From an uncultured Chloroflexia bacterium (GTDB lineage Bacteria; Chloroflexota; Limnocylindria; Limnocylindrales; CSP1-4): DNA of 64,000 nucleotides. The DNA lies in assembly GCA_963734535.1 (NCBI GenBank), contig CAVTHS010000011.1, positions 1 to 64,000 on the forward strand, read 5' to 3'. This document shows positions 41,734 to 58,695 of the stretch, piece by piece (the stretch's first letter is position 1; each line of letters begins with the position of its first letter). The position numbers were made by a program, and so were the translations under genes. The notes beneath the pieces are model-generated. The model saw only the letters and a list, made by a program, of their open reading frames with translations. It ran no database searches and was not told where the DNA came from.

Positions 41734-42333
41734 TCAGCCCTTGACGAGCTGCTGCACCAGCTGCTCCATGTCGCCCGGCGAGAGCCGGCCGATGCGCACG
41801 TCGCGAATCAGGCCGTCACGCCCGATGAAGAAGTGGATCGGGATGCCGTAGGTTCGGTAGAGGTCGGCGATCCGGCCGGACGGGTCCGCGACCATCGGGA
41901 AGGTGAAGCCGACCCGCTTCGCGTAGTCCTGGACGGCGGCCAGGTCCTCCTGGATGAAGACGCCGAGCACCGCCAGCCCCTGCGGCTTGTACTTCGCGTA
42001 CGTGGCCTCGAGGTCGGTTGCCTCGGCGCGGCAGTCAGGGCACCAGCTGGCGCCGAAGGTCAGCCAGGTGGGCTGACCCTTGAGCGCGGCAATGGAGACC
42101 GCCGAGCCGTCGAGGGCAGTCGCCTGGAAGTCGGGCGGCAGGTTGCCCGCGCGCGGGGGCGAGCCGGCCGCCGCTCCTCCCGGCACGAGGGTCACCCCGT
42201 CGTCTGCGGGCTTGTCGACGACCCAGGCCACGACCCCGACGAGTGTCGCCGTCACGGCCAGGACGAGGAGGGTCCGCAGGCGGCCCGCGGCCAGACCGAC
42301 CGGCCGCGACGCCGGGATCTGGATCACATCCAT
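41734..42333 (-). CDS. resA: membrane-anchored thiol-disulfide oxidoreductase (ResA/TlpA)
   Basis: FGASWCPDCRAE, YGIP.HFFIGRDG. Confidence 0.85.
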   Translation of the reverse strand: MDVIQIPASRPVGLAAGRLRTLLVLAVTATLVGVVAWVVDKPADDGVTLVPGGAAAGSPPRAGNLPPDFQATALDGSAVSIAALKGQPTWLTFGASWCPDCRAEATDLEATYAKYKPQGLAVLGVFIQEDLAAVQDYAKRVGFTFPMVADPSGRIADLYRTYGIPIHFFIGRDGLIRDVRIGRLSPGDMEQLVQQLVKG

Positions 42334-42362
42334 GGCCGTCTCCGTTCGTCAGCCGGCCCGGC

Positions 42363-43248
42363 TCAGGCCAGGCCGCTGTAGCTGTGAAGCCCGCCGAAGA
42401 AGAGATTGCCGAAGTAGGTGAGGAGCGTGGCGCCGAAGCCGACCAGGAGCAGGAGGGCCGCCTTGTTGCCGCGCCACCCGCGGACCACCCGGGCGTGGAG
42501 GTAGGCACCGTAGATGAGCCACGTCACGAGCGATGCGGTCTCCTTCGGGTCCCAGCTCCAGTACGTGCCCCATGCGGTGTCGGCCCAGACGGCGCCGAGG
42601 ACCACGGTGAGGGTCAGGAAGGGGAAGCCGATGACGATCGCGCGATAGCCGATCTCGTCGAGCACTCCGGGCTTCGGCAGGCCCCAGCGGCCGGTCGCCG
42701 GCTGAATCAGGTAGAGGAGCGCCGCGGCGAACGCGATCGTGAACGAGCCGTAGGCGACGATGGCGGTCGCGACGTGAACGGTGAGGAGCATGTTGTTCTG
42801 GAGCGCGGGGATCAGCGGCTCGATGCTCGCCGGGACGGTCGCGGCGTAGGCCAGCAGCGCGAGCGCGACGGGGAGGGCCAGGAGGCCCAGGATGCGCTGG
42901 TGGTATTTCCGCTCGAACCAGTAGTAGGCGCACAGGATCCCGAAGGCGAAGGCGATCGAGAACTCGTACATGTTGGAGAACGGGCCGTGGCCTGTGGCGA
43001 TCGTCCGGAAGACCAGGCTCGCCGCGATGGCGAAGACGCTCAGCCCGCCCAGGAGGGTCGCGTAGTGCCCGATGGAGGCGGTCCGGGGCCCCGACGTGAA
43101 GCCGATCCCCCCGGTCGTCATCGGGACGCCCGCGGCGGCCATCCGGGCGGCCCGGACACCCGAAAGGGCATAGAGGACATAGCCGGCGAGGGCGAGGAAC
43201 GTGCTCAGCGTCCCTGCGACGAAGGCGTATTCGGCGAGCTTTCCCATG
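42363..43248 (-). CDS. ccsA: cytochrome c synthase subunit CcsA/ResC (system II)
   Basis: HGPFSNMYE, PALQN..L.VHV, WWD domain GAVWADTAWGTYWSWDPKET, GLHSY. Confidence 0.95.
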
Positions 43249-43260
43249 GTGCGGCGCTCC

Positions 43261-44778
43261 TCAGCTGCGCGCCGGGCCCGTGACGGCCTGGCGGATGTCC
43301 GTGACGAGAGACGTGAACTCGGCGTCGAGGTCGCTGTCCCGGCGGCCGACCGCCGCGACGGAGAGCGAGCTGCCGCCGTCGGGCCGCGGTGCGAGCTGGC
43401 CCCAGATCCGGCGATAGGGGACGAAGAGGCGGACCATGAACCCCACGACCAGGAGGAGGCAGCCCAGCCACACGATCGGCGTCCCCGGATCCTTGGCGAC
43501 ATTGAGGCCCGTGTACTTGGTCTCGCGGTCGAACGTGTATGTCAGGCCCTCGATCGTCGTCGGCGTGCCCTGGTCAATCGACTTCTGGACGATCGGGTTG
43601 CCGGTGTCGGAGGCGTACAGCTCGATCGCCACCTGGCCGGGCTTGACGCTCGGGTCGTCGGGACCAGTGGTGGCAACCACCCAGACCGCGATGTTCTGGC
43701 CCGGGAGGGAGAACGTGCCGACCTTGTTGCCCCCGTTGTTCGAGGTCCAGGCGAGCGGCACGCCCGCGGAGTAGAGCGTCGCGCCCTTCGCGTCCTTCAC
43801 GGTCACGACCGCGGCCGGCCCGAAGAACGCCTGGTAGAACGAGACGTCGCCGTAGCGCAACGGCTCGTTGACCCGGACCTGCTGCTGGGCCACGGTCCGG
43901 CCGTCGCGGGTGAGGACCACGTCGCTCACGTAGTCGGACGGAGCCCCGGTGTCCGGGTAGTACGTGTCCTTGAAGGAGTTGAGCGTGATGGAAAGGCCCG
44001 GCTCCGTTGGCACGGCCGACGTGGCGCCCTCCGCGAGCATGAACTGCGAGTCGCGGAAGCCCCACATGGAGCCGACCATCGCCCCAGCCAGGATGACCAC
44101 GATGCTGAAGTGGCCTGCGATCCCGGCCCACGGCTGCCAGCGGTTGCGGTCGGCGTAGATGCGGACCGTTCCGTCGTCCTGGGCGACCGTCCGGTAGTGG
44201 CGGCGCTTGAGGACCTGCTCCGTCGCGGCGAGGACGTCGGCCGGGGCGCGGTGGAAGGTCATCTGCTCGTGCTGCGGCGCATGCTCGAAGAACGTCGGGC
44301 CCACGTTCACGTGCGGCTTCGTCATGGTCCGCCACGTGCCCGGGATGCGGTGGAGCGTGCAGGCGATCGTGGAGGCGGCGAGGAGCGCGCCGATGGCCCG
44401 CAGCCAGACCGACTGGAAGATCGTGAAGAACTGGAGCTGGTCCAGGACTCCGGTCCATCCGCCGTACTTCGGGCGGACCTCCGCGAGCCAGCCGGCCCGC
44501 GCCTGCGGGTCGTCGGCGACGCCTGCGGGCATCTGGATCAGGAGCGTGCCGACGAGCCCAAAGGCCGCGAAGGCGAGGATCAGGAGCAGCCCGAACTTCA
44601 TCGAGGTGAGCAGACCCCAGAGACGGTCCAGCGCCGAGTCGAGGGCGCCGGTCCGGCCGGTCGCGGCGATGGTCGGCAGCCCGTCGGCAGGCAGCGCGCC
44701 GGTCAGGGCCGGCACGGCGGCAGCCCCGGACGGCAGGGTGCCGGCCGCAAGGTTCTGGGTTCTCGTCGTGTGTGCCAT
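43261..44778 (-). CDS. resB: cytochrome c biogenesis protein ResB/CcsB (system II)
   Basis: LTSMKFG, GTLLIQ, IACT..R, TM His (GHFS), VRVNEPL...FYQA, KDPG. Confidence 0.92.
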   Translation of the reverse strand: MAHTTRTQNLAAGTLPSGAAAVPALTGALPADGLPTIAATGRTGALDSALDRLWGLLTSMKFGLLLILAFAAFGLVGTLLIQMPAGVADDPQARAGWLAEVRPKYGGWTGVLDQLQFFTIFQSVWLRAIGALLAASTIACTLHRIPGTWRTMTKPHVNVGPTFFEHAPQHEQMTFHRAPADVLAATEQVLKRRHYRTVAQDDGTVRIYADRNRWQPWAGIAGHFSIVVILAGAMVGSMWGFRDSQFMLAEGATSAVPTEPGLSITLNSFKDTYYPDTGAPSDYVSDVVLTRDGRTVAQQQVRVNEPLRYGDVSFYQAFFGPAAVVTVKDAKGATLYSAGVPLAWTSNNGGNKVGTFSLPGQNIAVWVVATTGPDDPSVKPGQVAIELYASDTGNPIVQKSIDQGTPTTIEGLTYTFDRETKYTGLNVAKDPGTPIVWLGCLLLVVGFMVRLFVPYRRIWGQLAPRPDGGSSLSVAAVGRRDSDLDAEFTSLVTDIRQAVTGPARS

Positions 44779-44791
44779 TCGTGCGCCTCCG

Positions 44792-45670
44792 TCAGCCGCC
44801 GAGCGGCGCTGTCAACGCCGCGAGACGCGCGAGCAGGTTGGTGACCATGAGAACGCCGAGGCCGATGAGCATCGCCCCGCTCACGAGCGAGACGACGCGG
44901 TGGTGGTGTCCAACCCAGCCGAGCCGGCGGGCGACCCACGTCGCGCCCATCGCGACGGCCAGGAACGGCACGGCGAGCCCGGCCGCATAGGCGAGGAGGA
45001 GCACGGTGCCCTGGGCCACGCTCCCGGTGGTGGAGGCGAGGCCGATGATCCCGCCGAGGATCGGGCCGATGCAGGGGCTCCAGCCCGCGGCGAAGACGAC
45101 CCCGAAGAGGAGCGACCGGCCGTAGCCGGGACCGCGCAGGCGCACGCCCGCGCCGGGTCCGCCGCCGAGCGTCAGCGTGCCACCACCGGGCAGGGCGCCG
45201 CTCGTCATCGTGCCGGCGCCGGCCATGGCGCGGCTCGCGATCGTGTCGCCGGCACCACTCATGCCGCCGCCCGCCAGGCCGCCGCCCGCCATGGCGCCAC
45301 CGGCCAGGGCGCCGCCGAAGGCGGGCATCGGGCGGGTGTCGCGCCACAGCGCCCGGAGGTTGATCACGCCCGCGACCTGGAGGCCCAGGACGATGAGGAC
45401 GGCCCCGCCGATCTGGCGGAGGTACTTCGCGTTGTCCGCCAGGGCGTATCCAATCGCGCCGATCGATGCCCAGAAGGCGACGAAGACGAGCGTGAAGCCG
45501 GTCACGAACGCGAGGCCGTGGACGAGGCTCCGCCGGCGGTCCGCCGCTCCCGTGGCGCCAACCATGTACCCGATGTAGGCCGGCACGAGCGGCAGGCAGC
45601 ACGGCGAGGCGAAGGAGACCACGCCTCCGAGGAATGCGACGAGGAGGCCGATCCCGGCCCCGACGGTCAT
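44792..45670 (-). CDS. ccdA: cytochrome c biogenesis thiol-reductant transporter CcdA
   Basis: SFASPCCLPLVPAY, GWSPCIGPILG, YAAGLAVPF. Confidence 0.93.
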   Translation of the reverse strand: MTVGAGIGLLVAFLGGVVSFASPCCLPLVPAYIGYMVGATGAADRRRSLVHGLAFVTGFTLVFVAFWASIGAIGYALADNAKYLRQIGGAVLIVLGLQVAGVINLRALWRDTRPMPAFGGALAGGAMAGGGLAGGGMSGAGDTIASRAMAGAGTMTSGALPGGGTLTLGGGPGAGVRLRGPGYGRSLLFGVVFAAGWSPCIGPILGGIIGLASTTGSVAQGTVLLLAYAAGLAVPFLAVAMGATWVARRLGWVGHHHRVVSLVSGAMLIGLGVLMVTNLLARLAALTAPLGG

Positions 45671-46968
45671 GGCCTGGCGCTCGATGACGGCGCGGCGCTC
45701 GACGCAGGCGCGGTCGATGGCGCGGACGATCCCGCGCTCGCGGCGGGGGAGCCGGCCGGCGCCGCGCTCGCGAGGGCGTCGAGGTGCGCCTTCACGGTCG
45801 TGGCGATATCGCTGTCCGGGGCGAGCGCGACGACGCGCGACCACTCGCGCTGGACCCCGACCATGTCGGCCGGCTGGCGGTTCAGGTAGAGGAAGCCCAG
45901 GTCGTAGTGCGCCTCGACGTTCTTCTCGTCGAGCGTCAGGACCTGTTTCCACGCTGTCTCGGCCGTGGTGGCGTCACCCAGGTTGAAGGCCGTCGCGCCG
46001 AGGGCCAGGAAGCCGCGCACGTTGGTCGGCTCGATCGCCGTGACCTTCGAGTACCAGTCGCCAGCGGTCTTGTAGTCGCCGGTCCTGTAGTACTCGTCGC
46101 CGAGCGCCATCAGCGAGTCGGCGTCCTCCGCGTTCGCCTGGATCTTGACCATCAGCGCGGCCACGGCCGCCTGGTCGAGGACCGGCGCGCTCGCGGCGGC
46201 GCTCGGTGCCGGGCTTCCGCCCGCGCCGATGACGGACGCGCTCGTGCCGCCCGCGTTGAAGCCCATCACGACCACGATCCCGATGGCGGCCACGGTGGCG
46301 CCGACGATGGCCAGGTTCCGGAAGGCAGCCGACCCGATGATTCCCAGGAGCTTGCCCGGGCGGGAGGTGGTCCCGGTTCTGGCAGCGGTCGACGCGGCGC
46401 GCTCCGCGGCGGTCCCGACGATCTCCCGGTGCGCGGTCGGATCCACCTCGGCCAGGAGGGCGTCGATCTCGTCGTCGCTGACGATGCGTCGGCCGGTCTC
46501 GTCGACGAGCACCGCCGCGGTCGCTGCCGCCGCGGCTGCCGGGGTCGCGTTTGTTGCCGCCGCGGCCGAGGCCGCGAGCACGGCCGTGTCCTTAGCCGCG
46601 CCCGCCGCTCGCCCCGTCGCGGCAGAGGGTGCCGCGACGGGGGTCGGCGCGAGGGTTTCCCGGCGAGCCGGAGGTGTCGCCGGCTCGCCGGGCAGGACGG
46701 CCGGTCGCGCGCCCGCCCCGACAAGGGCGACGGCACGGGAGAGCGCGGCCGGGTCCGTGAGAAGTGCGTACGCCTCGTCGGCACCGGAGGCCTGGACGCG
46801 TGCCCAGGCCCGCAGGCTGCGCGGCGCCGCCGCGAGATACGCGGAGACCGTCTCGTGGGCGGTGCTCACGTCCTCGGGCGTGGCGGACGGGTCGAGCCCG
46901 AGGCGTGACAGGAGCTCGCGCTCCAGCTTCTCCGGGCCCCTGGGAGTGGTGCTGCCCGGGCCGCTCAT
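45667..46968 (-). CDS. membrane-anchored TPR protein (CcmI/CycH-like) with degenerate N-terminal J-like domain
   Basis: TM then TPRs (LMALGDEYY, FLALGATAF, AHYDLGFLY); N-terminal LGLDPSAT.EDV...EAYALLTDP. Confidence 0.8.
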   Translation of the reverse strand: MSGPGSTTPRGPEKLERELLSRLGLDPSATPEDVSTAHETVSAYLAAAPRSLRAWARVQASGADEAYALLTDPAALSRAVALVGAGARPAVLPGEPATPPARRETLAPTPVAAPSAATGRAAGAAKDTAVLAASAAAATNATPAAAAAATAAVLVDETGRRIVSDDEIDALLAEVDPTAHREIVGTAAERAASTAARTGTTSRPGKLLGIIGSAAFRNLAIVGATVAAIGIVVVMGFNAGGTSASVIGAGGSPAPSAAASAPVLDQAAVAALMVKIQANAEDADSLMALGDEYYRTGDYKTAGDWYSKVTAIEPTNVRGFLALGATAFNLGDATTAETAWKQVLTLDEKNVEAHYDLGFLYLNRQPADMVGVQREWSRVVALAPDSDIATTVKAHLDALASAAPAGSPAASAGSSAPSTAPASSAAPSSSARP

Positions 46969-47229
46969 CGCGCGGCTCTGGCCGGACGCGCCCACCCGGC
47001 GCGTGCTCGTCTTCCGTGCATCTCGGATTGCCCTCGTTGATCGGCCGGGTCCATACCCGGTCCGTGACACCTGCACCGAAGTGTCGGCTCCGCGAGGTCG
47101 TGATCCCATCCGCCGGGCGGCACAAATGCGCCGGCGGACGAATGCTCAAGAGATACGGAAGGTCGGGGGGGGCTCTACCGATCGGTAGAGGGGGAAAGGC
47201 GACGGGCCATTCGCCGGGCGCCGTTGGGC

Positions 47230-50200
47230 TCAGTACGACTCGTCTTCGTGATTCTTGCCATGGCACGTCAGCGTGCACGTGCCCGTCTGCGTGCCGGCGC
47301 GAGTCCAGTCCACGGAGCCGATGTTCCCGGTCACGTTCGGCGCGAAGTTCACGAGACCAGCGTTGGTGCCGCTCTGCGATGGCGAAGGGCTCGTCCGGAA
47401 GTCACCCGCAAACGAGTTCGAGTGGATCCGGAAGTGGCATTCCGCGCAGATCGCGTCGCCGCGGCCCGCCTCGGGCGTGTCGATGGTCCCGTCGACAAGG
47501 CCCCGGTTTCGAATGCCGATCACGTGCAGCCCGTGGTACCGGAAGTTGGTGTCGGTCCTGGTCTTGCCGCTGGCGTCCGTGAACGGCGCTTCCGCATGGC
47601 ACATGTAGCACAGGGCGAAATCGGCTGACCGATAGGGTTCCGTGAAGGGCTTCAGGTCGCGATCGCGGTAGTTCTGCATGAGATCGCCGCGGTACTGGTT
47701 GGCGTGAGGCGCCAGGTCAGAGCCGGGCGCCGGCGGCGACGTGGTGTTGAACTTGCGGGAGTCTCCATGGCAGTTGGCGCAGCGGATCGTGCTGCCGGTC
47801 GTGAACGACCAGAGCTTGTAGGGCGATGTTCCGGCGAGACTGTTGGCCATCGCGGCGGTCGCATTCTTGCCCGGCGCCTCGATCGGGTGGAAGGATCCGT
47901 TGGCAGGATTGAGCTCGATACCCTTGTCCTCGGCCCACCACGAGGGGTGCTGTGGATCCTTCGCCGGCAGCACGGTCGAGCCGGAATGGCACTTCAGGCA
48001 GAGCTGATACTCGAGCGTCGTCTTGCCGGTCGACCCATCGAGGAAGGCATAGCCGGGCGCGCTGTTCGCGGCGCCATTCGTGACCGACACGCCGGTGACG
48101 CCCGTGAGCTCGCCAGGGGCCGTCCAGCCCTGGGTGGTCTGGATGCTTGGCGCGCCCGAGGCGGCGTGGGGATCGTGGCAATCCGCACACTCGTTATGGC
48201 GGTTGCTGACACCCCCGAACTCGACGTCGGTGGCAAGCGTGTGGCCGCTGCCGCCGGCCAGGGCGTCGTGGCGGTAGTAGGAGCCCGTCGCCGGGGAATT
48301 CTGCGGGACGAGCGGGTCCGTGTACTGGGACTGGACCTTGCTCGTGGCCCCCGAACCCAGGGTGTCGTGACACCGGAAGCACAGGGAGGATTGAGGCAGG
48401 CTGCTCACCACGAGAGACGCGGTGCCCTGCGCCGTGTGCGTGCTATGGCAGAACGCGCACTGATCCGCCGCCATGCCATAGGGTCCATGGATGTCGAGCG
48501 CCATCCCCCCCGGTGCCGCCGGGGCGACGAGGACATACCTGGTGCTCCCGACGGCACTGGCCGTGGCGGCCGCTGCCGGGAGCCCGAATAGGGAGCCCGG
48601 CTGGACCAGGCGGTACCTGAGGTCGGGGCTGGTATCCGGCGCCAGGCCTATCGGGAGACCCCCCGCCGGGCCGACCGGCTGGAGGCCCGGCGCGGTCGAC
48701 TGGGTCGAGCCCGGCTGGGCCAGGCGGTACGCGAGCGCTGGATCAAGGTTCGGCGCCGGCCCGACGGAGACCCCGGGGTTCTGGACGGGCGATTCGAGGA
48801 GGGGCGGCTCAGCCCCCATGTGCAAGGTGGCAGCGACCGCACCGATGAGAGCCGTGCCCGCGTCGGTGATCCGGAATTCGTACGATTCCAGGTACTGGGC
48901 GTCAGTCGTCGGCCGGATCGTGAACTCGACCTCCGTGTAGGACATGGCTGGAAGGGTCAGCGGGCCGGCCGGGTTCGGGCCCATGGAATGGCGGCCGACC
49001 GTGCGGACCTGAGACGCGTCGCTGGTGTCGCGGCTTCGAATCGTGCCGACGCTGATCGTGTCGGCGTCCGGTCCGAGTCTTGACCCACCGCCCGGCACGC
49101 CGCTGCTTACCCACTCGGGACCCACGTAGAAGCCCATCCCAATCACGCTCTCGCCGCTCGGCACAGCGACGAAGGCTGTGCCGCACTTCGGGCGATACTC
49201 GAGCCGAGGCGAGATCGTCACGGGGCGATCGCCCTCGTTCCGCACCTGGAACCGAATCCGAACCATGCTGAAGCGCCGGACGTTCGCGAGGGGTTCGTCC
49301 TCGGGCATGTAGGTCGGCGTGAGGCTGAGGTCCGCTACTTCGCCGACGGTCGAATGCTCGATCTCCACGAGCGGTGCGACGAAGATGGTGGCCGAGGGGC
49401 CGATCGCGAGGGCGCCCGCCACCTCCAGGCTGGAGGCGAAGGTCGCCGCGAAGTCGAGGCCGCCGTCGACCGGCGACGAGGTCGGAGCCCGGAGCACCAC
49501 CGACCGGTCCACGGAGATGTCCGCGCCGACGGGATCGAGATCCCAAACGATCCTTTCGAGATTGCCGTCGTACGTCCCACCGCCGGCATCGACGATCGAC
49601 CAACCCGCCGGGATGACGACGTTCAGGCTGCTGGCCGGCTGATCCTCGGCGGTCGTGAATCCGACGGTAACCCGGAGCTGTGTGCCGGGATCGATCCGGT
49701 GGCGGCCCTCGGCCGGCGCATCGGTGGTCAGGTGGAGCCGGACCGTGGCCGCCGGGTTCGGGGCGGGTGCGACGAAGATGGTGGCCGAGGGGCCGATCGC
49801 GAGGGCGCCCGCCACCTCCAGGCTGGAGGCGAAGGTCGCCGCGAAGTCGAGGCCGCCGTCGACCGGCGACGAGGTCGGAGCCCGGAGCACCACCGACCGG
49901 TCCACGGAGATGTCCGCGCCGACGGGATCGAGATCCCAAACGATCCTTTCGAGATTGCCGTCGTACGTCCCACCGCCGGCATCGACGATCGACCAACCCG
50001 CCGGGATGACGACGTTCAGGCTGCTGGCCGGCTGATCCTCGGCGGTCGTGAATCCGACGGTAACCCGGAGCTGTGTGCCGGGATCGATCCGGTGGCGGCC
50101 CTCGGCCGGCGCATCGGTGGTCAGGTGGAGCCGGACCGTGGCCGCCGGGTTCGGGGCGGGCGAGGGGCTCGCGATCGGATCAGGCGAGGGGCTCGCGATC

Positions 50201-50517
50201 GGATCAGGCGAGGGGCTCGCGATCGGATCAGGCGAGGGGCTCGCGATCGGATCGGGCGAGGGGCTCGCGATCGGATCAGGCGAGGGGCTCGCGATCGGAT
50301 CAGGCGAGGGGCTCGCGATCGGATCAGGCGAGGGGCTCGCGATCGGATCAGGCGAGGGGCTCGCGATCGGATCGGGCGAGGCGGAGGCATCCGGCGTGAG
50401 CGCAAGCACCGACGCGGCGTTGTTCGGAACGTACGCGAGCAGGAGCGTCCCAAGGAGCATCGCTGCCGCGGAGAGTGTCCTGGCGCGATGACCCACCGAG
50501 CGGTGCGTCTGCCTCAT
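47230..50517 (-). CDS. large secreted multiheme cytochrome c (7 CxxCH + 1 CxxxCH) with repeat stalk and duplicated beta-rich domains
   Basis: Signal peptide, (SPSPDPIA)9, two 131-aa domains; CAFCH, CFRCH, CADCH, CLKCH, CANCH, CYMCH, CAECH, CTLTCH. Confidence 0.9.
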   Translation of the reverse strand: MRQTHRSVGHRARTLSAAAMLLGTLLLAYVPNNAASVLALTPDASASPDPIASPSPDPIASPSPDPIASPSPDPIASPSPDPIASPSPDPIASPSPDPIASPSPDPIASPSPDPIASPSPAPNPAATVRLHLTTDAPAEGRHRIDPGTQLRVTVGFTTAEDQPASSLNVVIPAGWSIVDAGGGTYDGNLERIVWDLDPVGADISVDRSVVLRAPTSSPVDGGLDFAATFASSLEVAGALAIGPSATIFVAPAPNPAATVRLHLTTDAPAEGRHRIDPGTQLRVTVGFTTAEDQPASSLNVVIPAGWSIVDAGGGTYDGNLERIVWDLDPVGADISVDRSVVLRAPTSSPVDGGLDFAATFASSLEVAGALAIGPSATIFVAPLVEIEHSTVGEVADLSLTPTYMPEDEPLANVRRFSMVRIRFQVRNEGDRPVTISPRLEYRPKCGTAFVAVPSGESVIGMGFYVGPEWVSSGVPGGGSRLGPDADTISVGTIRSRDTSDASQVRTVGRHSMGPNPAGPLTLPAMSYTEVEFTIRPTTDAQYLESYEFRITDAGTALIGAVAATLHMGAEPPLLESPVQNPGVSVGPAPNLDPALAYRLAQPGSTQSTAPGLQPVGPAGGLPIGLAPDTSPDLRYRLVQPGSLFGLPAAAATASAVGSTRYVLVAPAAPGGMALDIHGPYGMAADQCAFCHSTHTAQGTASLVVSSLPQSSLCFRCHDTLGSGATSKVQSQYTDPLVPQNSPATGSYYRHDALAGGSGHTLATDVEFGGVSNRHNECADCHDPHAASGAPSIQTTQGWTAPGELTGVTGVSVTNGAANSAPGYAFLDGSTGKTTLEYQLCLKCHSGSTVLPAKDPQHPSWWAEDKGIELNPANGSFHPIEAPGKNATAAMANSLAGTSPYKLWSFTTGSTIRCANCHGDSRKFNTTSPPAPGSDLAPHANQYRGDLMQNYRDRDLKPFTEPYRSADFALCYMCHAEAPFTDASGKTRTDTNFRYHGLHVIGIRNRGLVDGTIDTPEAGRGDAICAECHFRIHSNSFAGDFRTSPSPSQSGTNAGLVNFAPNVTGNIGSVDWTRAGTQTGTCTLTCHGKNHEDESY
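49373..50160. repeat. in-frame tandem duplication, period 393 bp (2 copies, apparently identical)
   Basis: 49373-49767 matches 49766-50160. Confidence 0.92.
50159..50374. repeat. 24-bp coding tandem repeat x9 (GGCGAGGGGCTCGCGATCGGATCA)
   Basis: Nine contiguous units with no spacers; units 4 and 9 end in G; encodes SPSPDPIA on the minus strand. Confidence 0.95.
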
Positions 50518-50691
50518 GAGCGGGTTCCGACCGCTGGTTCGCCGGGGACGTCTGTTTCGGTCAGCCAGGCGACGCCCAGAGGCGGAACGACCAACGAGAT
50601 CCCCAGCCGCGCGAGGCGCGCGGGAGATCGAGGATTCTCGCACCGCTGGCTGGTTGATCGCATCTCGAAGCTCAATTCCTGGAGGTCTGGC

Positions 50692-50727
50692 CCGATCGGG
50701 GCCGCCGTGGTGGACGACCCCGATCGG
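50692..50727 (-). terminator. stem-loop immediately downstream of the OmcS-like gene
   Basis: CCGATCGGGG...CCCCGATCGG 10-bp perfect stem, 13 nt past the stop. Confidence 0.65.
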
Positions 50728-50740
50728 TGGCCTTCAAGGA

Positions 50741-52108
50741 TTACGGGAAGTTGACCGGCGCAGTCCCCTGCGGTAGCGGGGTTGTGCCCGTGTTGGCGCT
50801 GCCCTTCGTCGGGTCGTGACACAGCTCGCAGATCCCGCGGTTGTCAACCTTGAGGAGGCGGCTGTCGCCGACGGCCGTCGAGCCATCGGGATACGGAACG
50901 TTGGCCGAGTACTGGGTCGTGCTCGAGCCGGTGTTCATGACGGCGTTCGAGCCATGCGCGACGTGGCAGGTCGTGCAGGTTCGGTTCTTGGCGGTCGTGT
51001 GGCGATACATGTAGATCGCATCGCCTGAAGCCACGCTCCGCGAGCCCGAGGGCGCCAGGTAGCGGGTGTGGCATTGCGAGCACCAGTTCGTCATCTGGAC
51101 GTTGAACCCAAGTGGGTCCGCGCTGTTCCAGGCGGCGCTGCCGCTGGCGGACGTGTTCGGCCTCGCGTTAGGAGCGTCGTAGGAGGTTGTGCCGGTGGCG
51201 TTGTACGGGACGTTCTTGTGCAGATAGTCGCCGGACGCGGCCGCGTAGTCCCCGGCGATCCCGTTGAAGGTTCCCGCGGTCCGAGCTGCGAGCACCTGGT
51301 CTGCGTAGAGCAGGTACGTCGATTCGGTTCCGGGGGTGCCGTTCACCTGGATCACGGTGTAGTTGCGGGTCTTGGCCGGGTCGAACGTGGCATCAGTCAC
51401 GTTCACGGCGGCCGCCGCCAGGGTCGTCCCCGTCGTGGCGTCACCGTTGGCGTCCGGGATCCCCTGTAGGATCCGGTAGTTTCCATTCCCATGCGGATTG
51501 TGGCAGGCCGTGCACTCCATCTCGGAGGCGAGATCGCCGCCGGCGCCGGTGCTTCCATCGCCATTCCCGAGGGCACCGCTGCCCCAGACGATGTTCTTCG
51601 AGGTGAGCCCGTTCCCACCGGTCCCGGCGATCGCGATGTGGGCTGAGGTCACCTTGGCTCCCGCGGCCGAAGTGTTCGCCACGGGGACCTTTGCGTTCGA
51701 GACGCCGCCGGTGTTGCTGACGAGTCGATAGGCGGCACCCGAGCCGATGTAGGCCGTGATGAAGCCGCCGCCGCGGAGGGCTCCGACGACGGTGCTCTTG
51801 TCGCGGGCGACCCCGCTCAGGTTGTACTGGACACCGCTGTCGACGTCGGTTGCCGCGCCGGTCCCGGAAGCCCCATGGCAGGAGCGGCAGTATTCCGTGA
51901 CGGTCGCCTCGCTCGAGACGAGGAGGTAGCCCGTCGGGCTCTTCGACGTGTGGAGGCGATGGCACGCGGCGCAGCCATCGGCCGTGATCCCGCCGGTGGA
52001 TCCGTTGTTGAACTTCATGACGTGCGGCCCACCGTCGGCGGCGGCAGGCAATGCGGCGAGGATCAGCCAGACGGCGCCGCCCACGAACAAGAGCGCCAGT
52101 CGTCTCAC
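50741..52108 (-). CDS. secreted hexaheme cytochrome c, OmcS-like (nanowire/cell-surface cytochrome candidate)
   Basis: Strong RBS AAAGGAGGTGA + GTG; signal peptide ..PAAA; CAACHRLH, CRSCH, GGGF, CTACHNPHG..YRIL, MTNWCSQCH..RH, CTTCHVAHGS, CELCH. Confidence 0.85.
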   Translation of the reverse strand: MRRLALLFVGGAVWLILAALPAAADGGPHVMKFNNGSTGGITADGCAACHRLHTSKSPTGYLLVSSEATVTEYCRSCHGASGTGAATDVDSGVQYNLSGVARDKSTVVGALRGGGFITAYIGSGAAYRLVSNTGGVSNAKVPVANTSAAGAKVTSAHIAIAGTGGNGLTSKNIVWGSGALGNGDGSTGAGGDLASEMECTACHNPHGNGNYRILQGIPDANGDATTGTTLAAAAVNVTDATFDPAKTRNYTVIQVNGTPGTESTYLLYADQVLAARTAGTFNGIAGDYAAASGDYLHKNVPYNATGTTSYDAPNARPNTSASGSAAWNSADPLGFNVQMTNWCSQCHTRYLAPSGSRSVASGDAIYMYRHTTAKNRTCTTCHVAHGSNAVMNTGSSTTQYSANVPYPDGSTAVGDSRLLKVDNRGICELCHDPTKGSANTGTTPLPQGTAPVNFP

Positions 52109-52243
52109 TGTCTCACCTCCTTTCGCTAGTGCTACGGAACTCCAGTAGTCGCCCGCCCTGCGGGTGTCGGCGTGGGCCGATGGCCAACCTTCCTTTCCTT
52201 CAATGACTGGATTCACAGCCCATCAGCGCAGGTCCGGACCTGC

Positions 52244-53362
52244 TCAGTAGGTCCAAACCTGGATCCGGTTGTTGCGCCAATCGGCCACGTAGACACGTGA
52301 GCGGCCGTCCACGGCGACGGCGTTGGGCAGCTTGAAGCCGCCATCCCCCGAGCCCCCCTCGCCGAACGCGCCGATGTTCTGGGGGCGGGCGTCGCCTGCC
52401 GCGAGCACGTGGTAGACCTGCACGCCCTGGAGAGAGAGGTCGGCGACGAAGACGCGGCCCGAATCGTCGATCGCCGTTCCGCGTGGCAGCCCGAGGTTCC
52501 CGGCTCCCGCGCCGCGCCCGATGACGCCAAGCTGGCTGCCATCTCGGCCGAACACGACGAGCCGTCCGTTGTTGCTGTCCGCCACGTAGACGTTGCCGCT
52601 CGCGTCGACAGCCACGCTATTCGGGAAGCTGAACTCGTTCGCGCTCCCGAAGGTCTGGATGAACCTGCCGTCGGGCGCGAACTCATGGACAGCCTGGAAC
52701 GGTGCCCCGACGCTCGTGACGAAGAGGTCCCCCTTCGTGTCGAACGCCAGGCCGAGCGGTGCCCAACCCGTGAGGTCGGGCCCGGGGTCGAAGGCTCGCA
52801 GGTAGGTTCCGTCGGCCGAGTAGATGTAGATGGTCGCTGCGGGCCGGTCGCTCACATAGACATCGCCGTTCGTCGGGTTGACCGCAACGTAGACGGGAAC
52901 GTGGGTGCCGCCCGCAGTTGTCGGTGCCCTGAGCGAGCCGACCACGCTGCCGGATCCGTCGAACACGACGACCTGTGGGTCGCCTTCGGTCTGCGTGGCG
53001 TAGATCCGGCTTCCGTCGGCGTTCACGGCCACGCCTGTCGGGGCGACCACGTCGTAGATGCTGTACGAGTAGTGCGGCACCGCCTCGATGGTGATCCCTG
53101 GCAATGGGAGCTCGGCGATCGGCTTCCGGTTGAGGAGGTACCAGCCTCCGATCGTCAGTAGAGCGACAGTTGCGGCCAGAAGAAGGAAGAGGAGCACGAT
53201 CCGTCGGCGCCGGGCGCGCTCGGGCGACGCCTCGCCCCCGGGAGCGACGTCGCCGTGGGGCGCGCCGTCGTCTTCGGGAGCATCTGCGTCGGCGGGGATC
53301 GAGGGTCCCAGCACGGAGCCGTCGATCGATGTCATTCCCTGTGCCGTGACTTCACTGGTCAT
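52244..53362 (-). CDS. membrane-anchored NHL-repeat beta-propeller protein
   Basis: One TM; repeats P.GVAV/PNSVAVD..GNVYVADS.N.R, GGFKLPNAVAVD..VYVADW.NNRIQV. Confidence 0.92.
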   Translation of the reverse strand: MTSEVTAQGMTSIDGSVLGPSIPADADAPEDDGAPHGDVAPGGEASPERARRRRIVLLFLLLAATVALLTIGGWYLLNRKPIAELPLPGITIEAVPHYSYSIYDVVAPTGVAVNADGSRIYATQTEGDPQVVVFDGSGSVVGSLRAPTTAGGTHVPVYVAVNPTNGDVYVSDRPAATIYIYSADGTYLRAFDPGPDLTGWAPLGLAFDTKGDLFVTSVGAPFQAVHEFAPDGRFIQTFGSANEFSFPNSVAVDASGNVYVADSNNGRLVVFGRDGSQLGVIGRGAGAGNLGLPRGTAIDDSGRVFVADLSLQGVQVYHVLAAGDARPQNIGAFGEGGSGDGGFKLPNAVAVDGRSRVYVADWRNNRIQVWTY

Positions 53363-53363
53363 G

Positions 53364-54338
53364 TCAGCCACCGCTCGTCGTGCCGGAGGAGGGCGACGCG
53401 GCCGGGCTGCCGGATGGCACGCCACCCACCCGGGCCAGGCCCGTGTTCGCGGCGAAGTTCTGCGGATCCTGTGTCAGCACTCGGCTGTAGGCGTCGACCG
53501 CGGCGGCCGCGTCGTTCTGGACCTCGGCGACGAGCCCGAGGCCGATGAGCGCGTCGACCGCGTAGGTTCCCGACGTCAGGGGTCCGAGCTTCGCCCGGGC
53601 GTCGTCGGGACGCTTCTCGCACAGGGCAACCATCCCGCCCGCGTACTGGGCACCGGCGAGGTCACCCAGCGACGTGTAGGCCGTCTCCATCTGCGCGTAC
53701 GGTTCGCACCAGTCGACCGGAACGAGCGCGGTCGCCTGGCGGAGCGCGGCCACGGCACGCTTCGGTTCACCTGCCTGCATGAGCGCCGTGCCGAGGAGAT
53801 TGAGGGCGTCCGCGTCGGTCCTCTTGATCAAGATCGCCTTGGAGAGCGAGATGACCGCATCCTTGGGCTGGCCCTTCTTCACCTGGATGACGCCCAGGCT
53901 GAAGTAGGCGGACTCGAGTTGGGGGTCCACGTTCGCCATCTCCCCGCCCACCGCCGCATCGATGACCTTCGTGAAGTCCGCCGCGGCGGCATCGAGCTTG
54001 CTGAGGGCGATCTCGGCGCTGCCCCGGCCGAGGAGGGCCGCGTTGGAATCGGGTGCGGCCTTCAGGATCTCGTCGTACTGGGAAACGGAGTCAGCGAACC
54101 GACCTTTCTTCATGTACGCGGCCGCGAGGGTGAGCCGGGCATTCAGGAGGTTCGGGTTTCCGGTCAGCGCCTCCTCCGCGACCTGGATGTCACGGTCGAC
54201 GATTCCCGGACCCGGGGTGCGGTACTGGTCCAGGACGTAGAGGACTCCGACCAGCGGGATCCCGATCACCAGGATCATCGTCAGGCTGACGATCAAACGG
54301 TTGAGTGACCTGTTGGGCAGGGACGTGACCCGGAGCAT
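53364..54338 (-). CDS. membrane-anchored tetratricopeptide repeat protein
   Basis: N-terminal TM; multiple TPRs (ARLTLAAAY, ALLGRG, AYFSLG, ALNLLG). Confidence 0.88.
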   Translation of the reverse strand: MLRVTSLPNRSLNRLIVSLTMILVIGIPLVGVLYVLDQYRTPGPGIVDRDIQVAEEALTGNPNLLNARLTLAAAYMKKGRFADSVSQYDEILKAAPDSNAALLGRGSAEIALSKLDAAAADFTKVIDAAVGGEMANVDPQLESAYFSLGVIQVKKGQPKDAVISLSKAILIKRTDADALNLLGTALMQAGEPKRAVAALRQATALVPVDWCEPYAQMETAYTSLGDLAGAQYAGGMVALCEKRPDDARAKLGPLTSGTYAVDALIGLGLVAEVQNDAAAAVDAYSRVLTQDPQNFAANTGLARVGGVPSGSPAASPSSGTTSGG

Positions 54339-54562
54339 GTTGTGCACCTGCTGCTGCAACCTGAACGCGAGGCGTTGCGGCCGAGGGCGCACCCGCAGGC
54401 ACACCCCACCGGGTTCAATGGTGGTTGGCGGGCGTGCGGGTTCCAATCCGCCGGGGGGTAGAACATCGATACAGCCGGGCGGTCGTGTCGGCCCGGGGGG
54501 CATGTATCGCCCGGACGATGTATCCGCCGCCGCGCCGCGCCGGGCCGCCGCCAGCGCCCGCG

Positions 54563-55102
54563 TCAGGCGGCGGGGCGGGGCGTCGAGAAGTCCGCGGGGA
54601 CCTCGAGCTCGATCGGGCCGTCCGTCTCCCGGACGCCGAACCGGTCGAGCGGTCGCGGGGGCGGGCCCGAGATCACCGAGCCGTCGATGCGAAAGAAGCC
54701 CTTGTGGCAGAGGCAGGCGAACGAGGCCTGGTCGGTCCAGTCGTAGGCGCACCGCGCATGCGTGCAGCGGGGGTCGAACGCGACGAGATCGCCGGCGCTC
54801 CGGCGAACGAGCCATGCCGATCCTGCGACAGTGGCGCCGCCGACGGTCCCGGCGAAGCGGACGGGGACTGGCTGATCAGGGATCAGCCCGGACGGGTCGA
54901 CGTCCGCGCGCACCCATCCGCCGGGCGCGGAGACGGCCGCCGATCCGCACGCATCGAGCAGGACGATGCCGGCGACGGTCGACCCGATGACGGCGAGTGC
55001 CCGGCGCCGGCTGATCGGGGCGGCCAGCGGAAGACCGCGGGGGACCGTCTCGGGCGGGGCCGCGTCAAGCCCGGCGGCGTCGCGCGGAGCCCTGTCGTCC
55101 AT
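54563..55102 (-). CDS. Rieske 2Fe-2S protein with Tat/lipoprotein signal
   Basis: SRRRAL, LDAC, CTHARC and CLCHKGFF..DG.VISGPPPRPL. Confidence 0.9.
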   Translation of the reverse strand: MDDRAPRDAAGLDAAPPETVPRGLPLAAPISRRRALAVIGSTVAGIVLLDACGSAAVSAPGGWVRADVDPSGLIPDQPVPVRFAGTVGGATVAGSAWLVRRSAGDLVAFDPRCTHARCAYDWTDQASFACLCHKGFFRIDGSVISGPPPRPLDRFGVRETDGPIELEVPADFSTPRPAA

Positions 55103-55628
55103 GGCCGGGATCGTACGCCTGCGCGTCAGGGGGTCGGAACCGCCGCCTACGCGAATACGATGCGGGCTGCGAGGGTGCCGTCCACGGTCGACGGCCCATC
55201 TCTCTTGCCGTCCCACTCCCGGGACCGTGCTCCCGTATCAGTGCCAGTGTTAGCGAACACAACGGCCGCATTCCCAGTGCCCGGAGCTACCCCGAGACGA
55301 CGCGTCTCCTGGTCCTCGGCGCGGCGATCTCCCTCGACTCGAGCGTGAACCCATCTGCGCAGGTCCCGGGAGCAGCGCCGGAGCCCGTCCCCTGGCTCGA
55401 ACCGCCCGGAGCCGAACCGGAATCGTATCGGCGAATGATGGGAGTGATACGGCGGCGGCCCGGGTCCCGACCGGTCGCGCAGTGAAGCCGCGCCGCGCCG
55501 GGTTGAAGGCTCGCGCCGCGCCGACGGCCCGCGCCGTGCTGAAGGCCCGCGTAACGCCGCGCCGACGGCGCCGGGCGGAAGCCGCTCGTCCGTCGGCTTC
55601 ACTTGCCTCGGCAGGGTCCCGGCGATCC

Positions 55629-56000: not shown

Positions 56001-56219
56001 GGCCCGGGCTCCTGCGATGGGCGATCCCCCACTGGTCTCGCTCGGCCGCGATCGTACGAAGGGCAACGACGAGCTGCCATCCGCCCGAGGGCACAATTCA
56101 GGGGCCATCCGGTCTACCGAACGGCACCGAACGGCACACGATCGACAGGGGTGCGTCCCTCCGGCCCGCCCTGTCTGCCGGCCCACCCTCCCGGACCTGC
56201 CCGCCGGCGCCGGGCGGCC

Positions 56220-56921
56220 TCAGGTTCGGTGGGGATTCGACGGCCGCGGCGCGGACAGGCCCTGGGCGACCGTGAACGCGGCCGCCTGCGTCCGGTTGGA
56301 CAGGTGAAGCTTCTCGAGCGTGTTGTGGACGTGGTTCTTGACCGTGCCCTCGGTGATCGTCAGCTGGTTGGCGATCTCCTTGTTCGAGAGGCCGGCCGAC
56401 ACCAGCTGGAGGATCTCGGTCTCGCGCCTGGTGAGCGCCGTCTCGCCTTCCCCCGGGGTGGTCGAGGCATGTGCGCGCGGCGGCCCCTCGCGCAGCGCGT
56501 CGAGCAGCTTGTGGGCGATCGCGGGTGCGATCGGCGCCTCGCCGCGCATCACGCCGCGGAGGTCGTCGAACAGGACCTCCGGCCGGATGTTCTTCAGCAG
56601 GTAGCCGTTCGCCCCTGCCCGGATCGCGTCGAAGAGGTCGTCATCCTCCTCGGAGATCGTGAGCATGACGATCTTCGTGGGGTAGCCCGCCCCGCGGATC
56701 GCGCGGACGCCGTCCACGCCGCTCGCAACGGGCATGTTGACGTCCATCACGACGACGTCCGGCTCGAGTGTCCGCACGCGTTCGAGCGCCTCCATCCCGG
56801 TGTCGGCCTCGCCGACGACGGTCATGTCGACCTGGGCGTTGAGGAGTCCGGCGAGCGCCTTGCGAAAGAGCGGCTGGTCGTCAACCACCAGCACGCGCAG
56901 CGTCGGGGGCGTGTGCGGCAC
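56220..56921 (-). CDS. NarL/LuxR-family response regulator (canonical)
   Basis: VLVVDDQP, PDVVVMDVNMP, GANGYLLK, LTRRETEIL..GLSNKEIA...TVKNHV. Confidence 0.95.
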   Translation of the reverse strand: MPHTPPTLRVLVVDDQPLFRKALAGLLNAQVDMTVVGEADTGMEALERVRTLEPDVVVMDVNMPVASGVDGVRAIRGAGYPTKIVMLTISEEDDDLFDAIRAGANGYLLKNIRPEVLFDDLRGVMRGEAPIAPAIAHKLLDALREGPPRAHASTTPGEGETALTRRETEILQLVSAGLSNKEIANQLTITEGTVKNHVHNTLEKLHLSNRTQAAAFTVAQGLSAPRPSNPHRT

Positions 56922-58695
56922 GCATCTCCTCCTGTTGGAGCCGGACGACGACACGGGTCCCCGTGCCCGGCGCAGTGTGCACCTCGAGCGTACCGCCGAT
57001 CTGCTCCACTCGCTCGCGCATCGCCGTCATGCCGAAGCCGTGGTCGAGGGCATCTTCGACCCGCGCCGGGTCGAAGCCGGACCCGTCGTCCGTGACCTCG
57101 AGCGTCATGACGCCGCCGTCCTCGCCCAGCCTGACGGCTGCGTGGTAGGCGCCGGCGTGCTTCCGGACGTTCGTGAGCGCCTCCTGCACGACGCGCAGGA
57201 GCTGGACCTCGCTGCGTGGCGTGAGCGCCCGACTCGCTGCACCATCGCAGCTGAGCGTCGTCTTGATCCCGGTCTGGCGGGAGAACTTGCCGAGGTATTC
57301 GCCCAGGGCACCCTCCAGCCCCTCGGTCGATGCGGTCGAGTTGCTGAGCCCCAGGATCGCTTCGCGCACATCCTTGTAGCCCTCGTCCGCGATATCCGCC
57401 AGCCCGGCGAGCTCGGTGGCGGCGTTGTTGCCGGCCACGAGGCGTATCTTCGGAACCAGGCCGCGGAGTCCGAGGTGGAGCACGCCGAGCACCTGGGCGA
57501 TGGTGTCGTGCAGCTCGCGGGCGATCCTGTCCCGTTCGGCGACGATCGTGTACTGGTGCTCGGCGTCTCGGAGGCGGGCGGTCCGCACCCCGATGGCGGC
57601 CATGTAGGCGAGCGCGCCCAGGAGGTTTCGCTCCCGGTTCGCGAACGGGACCCCGTTCGTGCGCATCACGCAAAGCTCGCCGAGGAAGCCATCGGCGCCC
57701 CGCATCGGCTGCGCAAGGACGATCGCTCGCGGCCCCCCGTGCTGGATCGGGCATGCCGAATTGTGCCGATGCTCCTCGTGGGTATCGGCGCTGTGGGCCA
57801 GCAGGCAGGTCGATCCGTCGTCGGCGAGCGCCAGGCGATCCGTCCAGTCGTACGTCCGGCCGTCGTCGCGGGGGTTGGCCAGGCAGGCAACCGCCCGCTC
57901 CGCGCCGAGCAGCTCACGGGCGTGGCTCGTGATCGTGTCGAGGACCTCGCGCAGCTCGGCGCTCCCGGTGAGCTGGAGGGCGACCGAATGGAGAGCCTCG
58001 CGCTCGTGCTCCTCGCGGCGGAGGTCGGCCAGCGTCGTCGTCAGGGTCGCCGCCGTGCCGATCGCGCCGGCAAGGTCCACCAGTGCCGCCATCGAGATGG
58101 CCGGATCGCCCGACGGGTGGAAGACCAGGCGCATCGTCCCGACCGTGGCGCTGCTGCCAGCCAGCGGGAGATCCAAGACCGTCGCGTCGACCCCGGGGAG
58201 CTGCGCCTGGGCGGGACGCGCCGTCACGGCCGGCGTCTCGTCCAGGATGGCGTGGGCCCACAGCATGCCCGTGCTATCGCCGAGGTCGCCCGGCCGTCGA
58301 GCCGCCAGCGGCTGGCCGCCCGGCCCGTTGACGCTGATCTGGCCGGCGAGCGCGCCCGTGTGCACGAGCACGCGATCGAGCGCGGCAGCGAGCATCGCCG
58401 GGAGCTCCTGGTCGCCTTGCAGGGCCGAGGCAACGGCATGGGTGGCGGCAAGGTCCCGGTTCGTCTCGACGAGCTGACGCTGGGCGCGATCGAGGAGCGC
58501 GAAGATGCCGAGGGCGAAGAGCACCGCCCCGCCGCTCATCACCAGGGCCGCGAAGAGGTGGGCGGAGTCGGCCGGGACGCGGGGATCGATCACGAGGTAA
58601 CGAGCCAGCTCGAAGCCCCAGATGAGGCCGATCGGAAGCAGGACGCCAACCCACTTCGCACGCACCAGCAGCCGAACGTCGCGCTCCGGATTCAC
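56881..58695 (-). CDS. membrane sensor histidine kinase (2 TM, GAF domains, HisKA_3/NarX-like)
   Basis: ERDRIARELHDTIAQ, QEALTNVRKHA, DDGSGF, GFGM..MRER, PGTGT. Confidence 0.93.
   Translation of the reverse strand: MNPERDVRLLVRAKWVGVLLPIGLIWGFELARYLVIDPRVPADSAHLFAALVMSGGAVLFALGIFALLDRAQRQLVETNRDLAATHAVASALQGDQELPAMLAAALDRVLVHTGALAGQISVNGPGGQPLAARRPGDLGDSTGMLWAHAILDETPAVTARPAQAQLPGVDATVLDLPLAGSSATVGTMRLVFHPSGDPAISMAALVDLAGAIGTAATLTTTLADLRREEHEREALHSVALQLTGSAELREVLDTITSHARELLGAERAVACLANPRDDGRTYDWTDRLALADDGSTCLLAHSADTHEEHRHNSACPIQHGGPRAIVLAQPMRGADGFLGELCVMRTNGVPFANRERNLLGALAYMAAIGVRTARLRDAEHQYTIVAERDRIARELHDTIAQVLGVLHLGLRGLVPKIRLVAGNNAATELAGLADIADEGYKDVREAILGLSNSTASTEGLEGALGEYLGKFSRQTGIKTTLSCDGAASRALTPRSEVQLLRVVQEALTNVRKHAGAYHAAVRLGEDGGVMTLEVTDDGSGFDPARVEDALDHGFGMTAMRERVEQIGGTLEVHTAPGTGTRVVVRLQQEEMRAAHAPDAARAGG

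Follow-up and report, generated by a model that had tools for sequence, protein, structure and literature searches.

A secreted hexaheme cytochrome of an uncultured Limnocylindria bacterium belongs to the OmcS superfamily and is a plausible subunit of a heme wire

Introduction

Two hexaheme cytochromes, OmcS of Geobacter and CwcA of Thermincola, are the closest described systems to the gene that we analyse here. This gene encodes a secreted c-type cytochrome with six heme motifs, hereafter the hexaheme, on the minus strand at positions 50741..52108 of a 64,000-nucleotide stretch of DNA (the window; contig CAVTHS010000011.1 of assembly GCA_963734535.1) from an uncultured bacterium of the class Limnocylindria. 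Limnocylindria are uncultured Chloroflexota, known largely from soil metagenomes. An earlier note, made from the sequence alone, had described the product as an OmcS-like hexaheme that retains the inter-subunit His motif and had proposed that it is a polymerising nanowire subunit.

According to the available parts of three papers, all hemes of OmcS are bis-His ligated and the His of heme 5 comes from the adjacent monomer (PMC7096707, PMC9473688, PMC12954529). OmcE, in the available text of two of them, also receives a His from the adjacent subunit (PMC9473688, PMC12954529). OmcE and OmcZ resemble the proposed system in being extracellular polymerising multiheme cytochromes, and two archaeal cytochrome filaments have also been described in literature available in part. 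CwcA (Tfer_0075) of Thermincola ferriacetica/potens, a Gram-positive metal reducer, is a hexaheme homologue of OmcS with 18 % identity; it was insoluble on expression and was homology-modelled as a peptidoglycan-crossing polymer in which heme 5 is ligated by a His of the next subunit (PMC7911101, available part). The earlier note had cautioned that related hexahemes occur in Gram-positive metal reducers such as Thermincola, and the published description of CwcA proves that caution right (PMC7911101, available part). We found no description of OmcS-type proteins in Limnocylindria in the literature searched, supplements aside. The available part of one nanowire paper reports no Chloroflexi homologue of OmcS, and a preprint on the Chloroflexi supergroup, in its available part, treats large multiheme cytochromes for Anaerolinea alone.

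The hexaheme is like OmcS (PDB 6EF8/6NEF) in that both are secreted proteins of about 400-430 aa whose six CxxCH motifs are collinear and whose six other conserved His are interleaved with them in the same way. GG(G/D)F, CH(N/D)PHG, YRIL and WCxxCHT are common to both, an NHL-repeat gene is adjacent to both cytochrome genes, and some relatives of the hexaheme have tandem paralogues. The two differ in several respects. Identity at the profile level is about 23 %; the N-terminal His of the mature protein is residue 5 in the hexaheme (DGGPH) and residue 2 in OmcS (FH); the hexaheme host has no detected outer-membrane markers; and the partner set of the hexaheme is another one, with a stalked paralogue, a Rieske protein and dedicated System II maturation genes. 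Polymerisation has been demonstrated for OmcS and is proposed for the hexaheme. With CwcA, compared by the available part of its published description only, the hexaheme shares OmcS ancestry, a bacterium without an outer membrane and the concept proposed here; the phyla (Bacillota and Chloroflexota) and the gene contexts differ, and polymerisation of CwcA is itself a model, not an observation.

Results

The hexaheme is a distant homologue of OmcS

The 455-aa precursor has six CxxCH motifs (Cys 46/49, 74/77, 199/202, 343/346, 378/381 and 427/430). Six further His stand outside them, namely H29 (GPH), H53 (CHRLH), H157 (SAH), H206 (CHNPH), H370 (YRH) and H385 (CHVAH), and other motifs are GGGF (113-116), YRIL (211-214) and M339-xx-W-C-xx-C-H. 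Conservation was counted in an alignment of 121 hexaheme-family sequences, which was filtered at 80 % identity and has members as distant as 35 %. The His of all six CxxCH is kept in 121/121 sequences, and H29, H53, H157, H206, H370 and H385 are kept in 116, 120, 121, 121, 120 and 121 of them, four of the H29 misses being N-truncated rows. The motif set is therefore more than chance. A seventh non-CxxCH His, H297 (YLH), absent from the list in the earlier note, is not conserved (62/121), and the mature N-terminus DGGPH (positions 24-29) is nearly invariant. In a Pfam scan Paired_CXXCH_1 (PF09699) was found in three stretches of the hexaheme, together with generic multiheme families, and no curated NCBIfam family reached its cut-off in the Pfam and NCBIfam scans.

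OmcS-family genes were gathered from metagenome contigs by a nine-residue motif scan, which gave 24 loci on 22 contigs, many of them short. Fourteen of these sequences form alignment A4, and its first member, L096, matches PDB 6EF8 with an E-value (E) of 2e-139 over residues 1-407. When the hexaheme family (alignment A2) was compared with A4 by hhalign, signal peptides removed, the score was 174.7 over 247 aligned columns that span the whole mature proteins, with the six CxxCH collinear. The paired motifs are GGGF/GGDF, SAH/GH, CHNPHG/CHDPHG, YRIL/YRIL, WCxxCHT, YRH/LIH and CHVAH/CHRAH. Since Cys/His motifs inflate profile scores, a control was run in which each column of A4 except CxxCH was shuffled inside the inter-motif segments, keeping spacing and composition (n=15). 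These shuffles score 44.6 +/- 8.2 with a maximum of 59.9; the similarity between the hexaheme and OmcS therefore goes far beyond the heme motifs. The same motif-only shuffles still give hhalign 'probabilities' up to 93.5 %, so that these values overstate similarity among cytochromes.

Profile searches of the PDB gave a similar picture. OmcS was found at E 8.5e-4 with a family profile of 40 sequences and at E 3.2e-4 with the 121-sequence profile; with 68 more diverse sequences it ranked first (E 1e-6) in a single collinear stretch over hemes 3-5. OmcS is absent at E <= 10 from a single-sequence phmmer search of the PDB. MtrA (6R2Q chain A) matches the same three profiles at E 3e-4, 7.9e-6 and 3.6e-5, through one repeated module only. 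OmcE is matched only via the C-terminal paired-CxxCH module (E 0.19, 0.0024 and 0.0083 with the three profiles), and OmcZ gave no match in the PDB profile searches. The cytochrome-nanowire structures among these PDB matches are all from a few Geobacter-type bacteria (OmcS, OmcE and an OmcE-like chain).

An AlphaFold2 (AF2) monomer model of the hexaheme, built from the 121 sequences and containing no hemes, has a predicted local distance difference test score (pLDDT) of 85.8 and a predicted template modelling score (pTM) of 0.85. With 40 sequences of 47-96 % identity the pLDDT was 43.5; the rise to 85.8 indicates that heme-free AF2 folds this family when given sequence diversity. The model has a beta-rich region at 93-140, and the signal peptide is modelled as a helix (residues 2-19). 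Its only low-confidence part is residues 23-70 (means of 50-63 in blocks of 10 residues), which hold H29, heme motif 1 and H53. VIA-align of the model against 48,161 representative chains places OmcS (6EF8_A) first, with Z 8.1 and a root-mean-square deviation of 3.8 A over 208 residues at 26 % identity (model 27-434, chain 1-407). The only other chains at Z >= 2 are MtrA (5.0) and OmcE (2.5). The AF2 weights presumably predate the OmcS structure, which would make the model independent of it. A fold comparison with OmcS had been suggested in the earlier note; run on the monomer model, it succeeds with VIA-align, whereas the Foldseek match to OmcS is not significant (E 2).

Taken together, these results establish the hexaheme as a genuine but distant homologue of Geobacter OmcS. 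The label 'OmcS-like' of the earlier note thus holds up in the motif-controlled profile alignment, the PDB profile searches, the structural match and the NHL neighbour described below, and the alignment with OmcS extends beyond CxxCH, as that note had asked (174.7 against a shuffle maximum of 59.9). Its reading of a 455-aa precursor with a cleavable signal peptide, six CxxCH, six extra His in the given order, GGGF, YRIL and MxxWCxxCH agrees with the sequence, the 121-sequence alignment and the start site. The OmcS motifs that it had named, FH..C.GCHTMH, LL..CLNCH, GGDF, GH, C.SCHDPHG, YRIL, MSEWCANCH, LRH, CLSCHRAHAS and CNKCH, were all confirmed against the real OmcS-family sequences of A4 and stretches of OmcS itself.

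As a separate observation, two GC-rich contigs among the OmcS-family loci, L078 (9997-10575) and L080 (1322-2026), carry a second open frame about 4 kb from the OmcS-family gene. These frames match residues 35-214 of the hexaheme with 23-25 % identity (E 1e-7 to 2e-6) and may be another paralogue of the OmcS superfamily.

Heme ligands

Exactly six non-CxxCH His are invariant in the OmcS family (14/14 sequences of A4), at mature positions 2, 16, 109, 146, 256 and 340 in the numbering of L096. They interleave with the CxxCH motifs exactly as H29, H53, H157, H206, H370 and H385 do in the hexaheme. Five of the six axial His pairs are aligned in the hhalign comparison of A2 and A4, and the N-terminal pair falls outside the aligned range. 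The mature N-terminus of the OmcS family is also nearly invariant (AFHxGG). Since twelve conserved His serve six hemes, no coordination site is left open, and judged from the sequences all six hemes of the hexaheme are His/His-ligated.

The donor His in OmcS we take to be residue 16, a number that was not confirmed in the literature searched. If the ligand topology is conserved along with the fold, the hexaheme would also have a heme that needs a His of the neighbour. The earlier note had placed this role on the His of CxxCHxxH. H53 is indeed present, is kept in 120/121 sequences and aligns with the corresponding OmcS-family His. The diagnostic value of the motif did not hold: because CxxCHxxH is generic, occurs three times in the hexaheme and is also present in MtrA, its presence is not diagnostic of inter-subunit ligation.

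Start site, signal peptide and flanking elements

The longest open reading frame around the gene is 50741-52216 (491 aa). We take the GTG at 52108 as the start because it is preceded, 4 nt upstream, by a strong Shine-Dalgarno sequence, GAAAGGAGGTGA (52113..52124, minus strand), which gives the 455-aa precursor. The N-terminus, MRRLALLFVGGAVWLILAALPAAA followed by DGGPH, is a typical Sec signal peptide with an AxA site (aa 1-24, 52037..52108, minus strand, as read from the sequence), and cleavage is predicted between AAA and DGGPH. No anchor, lipobox Cys or sortase motif was found in the hexaheme sequence.

A GC-rich hairpin of 15 bp without a U-tract (50692..50727, minus strand) begins 14 nt past the hexaheme stop codon. 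Its folding energy is -38.5 kcal/mol (z -4.55, reached by 0/200 shuffles). It is possibly an attenuator or an mRNA-stabilising element ahead of the large cytochrome gene, and it may set different expression levels for the two cytochrome genes. A scan for consensus promoters and terminators around the hexaheme gene found none.

The gene module

Conservation of the neighbours was assessed by tblastn (E <= 1e-8) on 76 related loci with 8-kb flanks; many of the partner misses are contig ends or genes beyond the flank. The partners stand in the same order and orientation in nearly all matching loci. Within the window all of the following module genes are on the minus strand.

Next upstream of the hexaheme gene is a gene for an NHL-repeat beta-propeller with one N-terminal transmembrane helix (52244..53425), present in 70/76 loci. 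It is the only NHL gene found in the genome, and its product is a candidate assembly or anchoring partner of the hexaheme. In G. sulfurreducens the NHL-repeat gene GSU2505 adjoins omcS, and the available text suggests that it is needed for assembly or expression of OmcS (PMC9070056). Pfam-confirmed NHL genes also adjoin OmcS-family genes in 4/24 metagenome loci. Further upstream are genes for a membrane-anchored TPR protein (53364..54815, 65/76 loci, true start probably downstream of 54815), a Rieske [2Fe-2S] domain protein (54563..55216, 45/76) and a two-component system (56220..58695) which consists of a LuxR/NarL-type response regulator (56220-56954, 50/76) and a GAF/HisKA_3 histidine kinase (56881-58695, 50/76). 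Between the Rieske and response regulator genes there is an open frame of 185 aa (55629-56186), a putative gene with no Pfam match at E <= 1e-4.

Downstream, a gene at 47230..50643 (67/76 loci) encodes a large secreted multiheme cytochrome of 1137 aa, in which the SPSPDPIA repeat occurs about ten times and a domain of about 190 aa is duplicated almost exactly. The C-terminal heme domain has 7 CxxCH and 1 CxxxCH. Its first heme module is 37 % identical to the N-terminus of the hexaheme over 87 residues, both His included, and in hhalign the domain scores 115 against the hexaheme family and 70 against the OmcS family, the latter barely above the shuffle maximum. From these sequence comparisons the heme domain is a divergent paralogue of the hexaheme; we refer to the whole protein as the stalked paralogue. 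The hexaheme gene itself is single-copy, and Paired-CxxCH domains in the genome are confined to these two proteins.

The genes that follow encode a second membrane-anchored TPR protein with a weak CcmH/CycH-type TPR match (45667..47109, 59/76 loci) and a System II cytochrome maturation set (41734..45952) of CcdA/DsbD_TM (44792-45952, 51/76), ResB (43261-44778, 51/76), CcsB (42363-43502, 49/76) and a thioredoxin-like AhpC/TSA-Redoxin protein (41734-42333, 33/76). Next to them lies a gene for a NapC/NirT-type membrane multiheme cytochrome of 567 aa (40017..41720), found in 13/76 loci and often beyond the flank, which is a candidate quinol-side entry point. A gene for an NrfD-type membrane protein (35359-37356, plus strand) and the NapC/NirT-type gene both lie within 15 kb and are candidate links to the quinone pool.

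Family, distribution and host envelope

A word-indexed search with 7,999 scored candidates gave 1,890 proteins related to the hexaheme at E <= 0.001. An exhaustive search of representatives at 50 % identity found 808 relatives (552 at E <= 1e-10 and 175 at E <= 1e-30). Few relatives have source names; these are given as 'cytochrome c3 family' of Chloroflexota / Candidatus Limnocylindrales, and the named members are mostly Limnocylindria. The 76 related loci from named genomes are all in metagenome-assembled genomes of Chloroflexota/Limnocylindria but four, which were binned as Actinomycetota or Actinomycetes. At E <= 1e-20 the hexaheme gene was found in 12/60 sampled genomes of the same family and in 3/7 of the same genus, the genome of the window not counted. 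A language-model search pointed to a related cluster with Bacillota as the commonest phylum (score 0.93), which serves as a lead only.

Some relatives differ in architecture. Many of the proteins P0127-P0242 are 570-870 aa long and have the same six CxxCH with a large insertion between heme motifs 3 and 4. We regard this site as an insertion hot-spot, probably at the surface, because the extra of about 110 aa in the hexaheme relative to OmcS is at the same place. Protein P0253 (726 aa) has 12 CxxCH, one hexaheme unit plus six more hemes with other spacing. It was considered as a tandem head-to-tail fusion, and this was ruled out since the second six hemes are spaced differently; it offers no Rosetta-stone evidence. 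Tandem full-length hexaheme pairs occur in some relatives (G038:C1:307113-309713 and G005:C41:2397-5055), which we take to resemble the omcS/omcT pair of Geobacter.

Omp85 and LpxC were not found in the host genome, which is 89.9 % complete; control genomes were positive in 7/14 and 4/14 cases. This is consistent with a host without an outer membrane, absence in an incomplete genome not being proof. Because no outer-membrane markers were found, an unanchored soluble hexaheme needs some means of retention.

Part of the hexaheme gene is present in 20/24 public sequencing runs among the matches listed, six of which are RNA libraries. Four metatranscriptome runs, which belong to three studies, have contigs of 95-97 % identity to the gene that cover most of the coding sequence (1138 nt with 29 differences, 1061 with 39, 733 with 22 and 611 with 20); this suggests that close relatives are transcribed in soils and sediments. 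In these RNA runs, which were selected with the hexaheme gene, the NHL and large-cytochrome genes are covered barely or not at all; such missing cover proves nothing about relative expression or transcript ends.

Discussion

By every testable feature the hexaheme belongs to the OmcS superfamily, and from the combined analysis its reading as a nanowire subunit is plausible. It probably carries respiratory electrons across the cell wall. The explanation that we favour is a head-to-tail heme wire, to which we give a probability of about 0.5; in other words, the odds that the hexaheme polymerises are about even.

Such a wire would be built as follows. The hexaheme would be exported by Sec and then receive its hemes from the adjacent Ccs system. 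Successive subunits would be joined head to tail in the manner of OmcS. Each would dock with its N-terminal module on the heme-5/6 end of the next, and one N-terminal His, most likely H53, would complete the coordination of a heme of the neighbour. A heme wire, short or long, would thus link the quinol-side cytochromes of the membrane through the wall to the stalked surface cytochrome, and the membrane-anchored NHL and TPR proteins would be assembly or anchoring factors. Electrons could run in either direction, for reduction or oxidation of an external substrate. Hints for assembly come from the near-invariant DGGPH, the low confidence of residues 23-70, the lack of an anchor in a protein whose host yielded no Omp85 or LpxC, the adjacent single NHL gene, the synteny and the precedent of CwcA.

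A more specific version goes further. It proposes an OmcS-type polymer of Limnocylindria that runs through the wall, with the stalked paralogue as cap or anchor and the NHL and TPR proteins as assembly machinery. The stalked paralogue, which carries this N-terminal docking module and its two His ahead of a heme domain of its own, would attach to the polymer at its heme-5/6 end. We consider this version doubtful, though worth stating.

Several observations weigh against a polymer, and most of them favour a rival in which the hexaheme has the same OmcS ancestry and the same role in the pathway and does not polymerise. It would then be a monomer, or part of a fixed hetero-complex with the NHL, TPR and stalked proteins, with all hemes ligated within one chain. 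Six conserved His suffice for six hemes in one chain, and an all-intramolecular assignment is arithmetically possible from the sequence, each conserved His preceding one CxxCH. The CxxCHxxH motif is general to paired-CxxCH modules (Paired_CXXCH_1), and MtrA, which does not polymerise, matches that module at similar E-values. H370 is just 8 residues before C378 of the heme-5 motif, unlike its OmcS-family counterpart, which is about 77 residues before that motif. Compared with OmcS, the hexaheme has about 110 additional residues between hemes 3 and 4, and its heme 4-5 region is about 70-80 aa shorter. Of the 60 strongest pairs in a mean-field direct coupling analysis (217 sequences, effective number of sequences (Neff) 123), none joins residues 25-72 to residues 372-455. 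Couplings of 119/121/150 with 387/388 and of 127/135 with 446/452 look real and are ambiguous between contacts within and between subunits. Foldseek ranks 6EF8_A first, yet the similarity is not significant (E 2, TM score 0.17-0.19). The long-stalked paralogue of 1137 aa already gives reach and could extend outward without a polymer. The gene is also patchy, being found at E <= 1e-20 in 15/201 sampled genomes of the class and 7/301 of the phylum. As regards expression, contigs of RNA libraries can contain DNA, and the runs were chosen with the hexaheme gene.

On the other side, each of the six axial His of the OmcS family is matched by a counterpart of its own in the hexaheme, and in OmcS one of these His goes to the adjacent subunit. 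The mature N-terminus is nearly invariant, and segment 23-70 is the sole part left unplaced in the monomer model. A soluble protein that lacks an anchor also requires some means of retention in a host where no outer-membrane markers were found. We rate a non-polymerising hexaheme as a serious candidate, at somewhat under an even chance.

The resemblance to the decaheme proteins MtrA/DmsE is of a different kind. The doubled CxxCH module with CxxCHxxH, a motif found thrice in the hexaheme, is common to them, and the likeness is confined to this one repeated module; MtrA/DmsE have ten hemes against six, and the hexaheme has no porin partner. The NCBIfam family for DmsE (TIGR03508) scores 36.5 on the hexaheme, against a cut-off of 192.2.

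It is very improbable that the hexaheme is a catalytic multiheme enzyme, such as a nitrite, hydroxylamine or sulfur-compound reductase, or an intracellular-side respiratory subunit with no part in extracellular electron transfer. NrfB, NrfH and QrcA give weak NCBIfam matches (E 0.027-0.078) which are far below the cut-offs, and Rieske, NapC-type and NrfD-type genes are nearby. No catalytic family reaches its cut-off, however, and the twelve conserved His leave no coordination site open at any of the six hemes. Over its full length the hexaheme is homologous to OmcS; it also has a signal peptide, and its conserved partner is a stalked secreted cytochrome.

Finally, there is next to no chance that the hexaheme is unrelated to OmcS and resembles it only by coincidence, through CxxCH motifs and composition. 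The missing phmmer match, the 93.5 % reached by motif-only shuffles and the Foldseek E-value of 2 would fit this reading, but it is refuted by the CxxCH-preserving shuffle control (174.7 against 44.6 +/- 8.2, maximum 59.9 in 15 shuffles). In structure, too, OmcS is the best match of all chains (Z 8.1, full length), and it has an NHL neighbour as well.

Conclusions

The idea of a heme wire in bacteria without an outer membrane is already known, from one homology model, that of Thermincola CwcA. The present analysis adds a large protein family that is truly related to OmcS, keeps all heme ligands and is encoded in a compact, conserved and apparently expressed module. This offers a clonable test case for two questions, whether monoderm bacteria have OmcS-type wires and which accessory genes (NHL, TPR) are required to make them. 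Should the hexaheme prove monomeric, a comparison with OmcS would reveal what causes a hexaheme to polymerise. If the capped polymer is real, cytochrome nanowires would be known for the first time from outside diderm bacteria and archaea, in a system with a built-in cap.

For the organisms themselves, our results suggest that extracellular electron exchange may belong to the lifestyle of some uncultured soil Chloroflexota.

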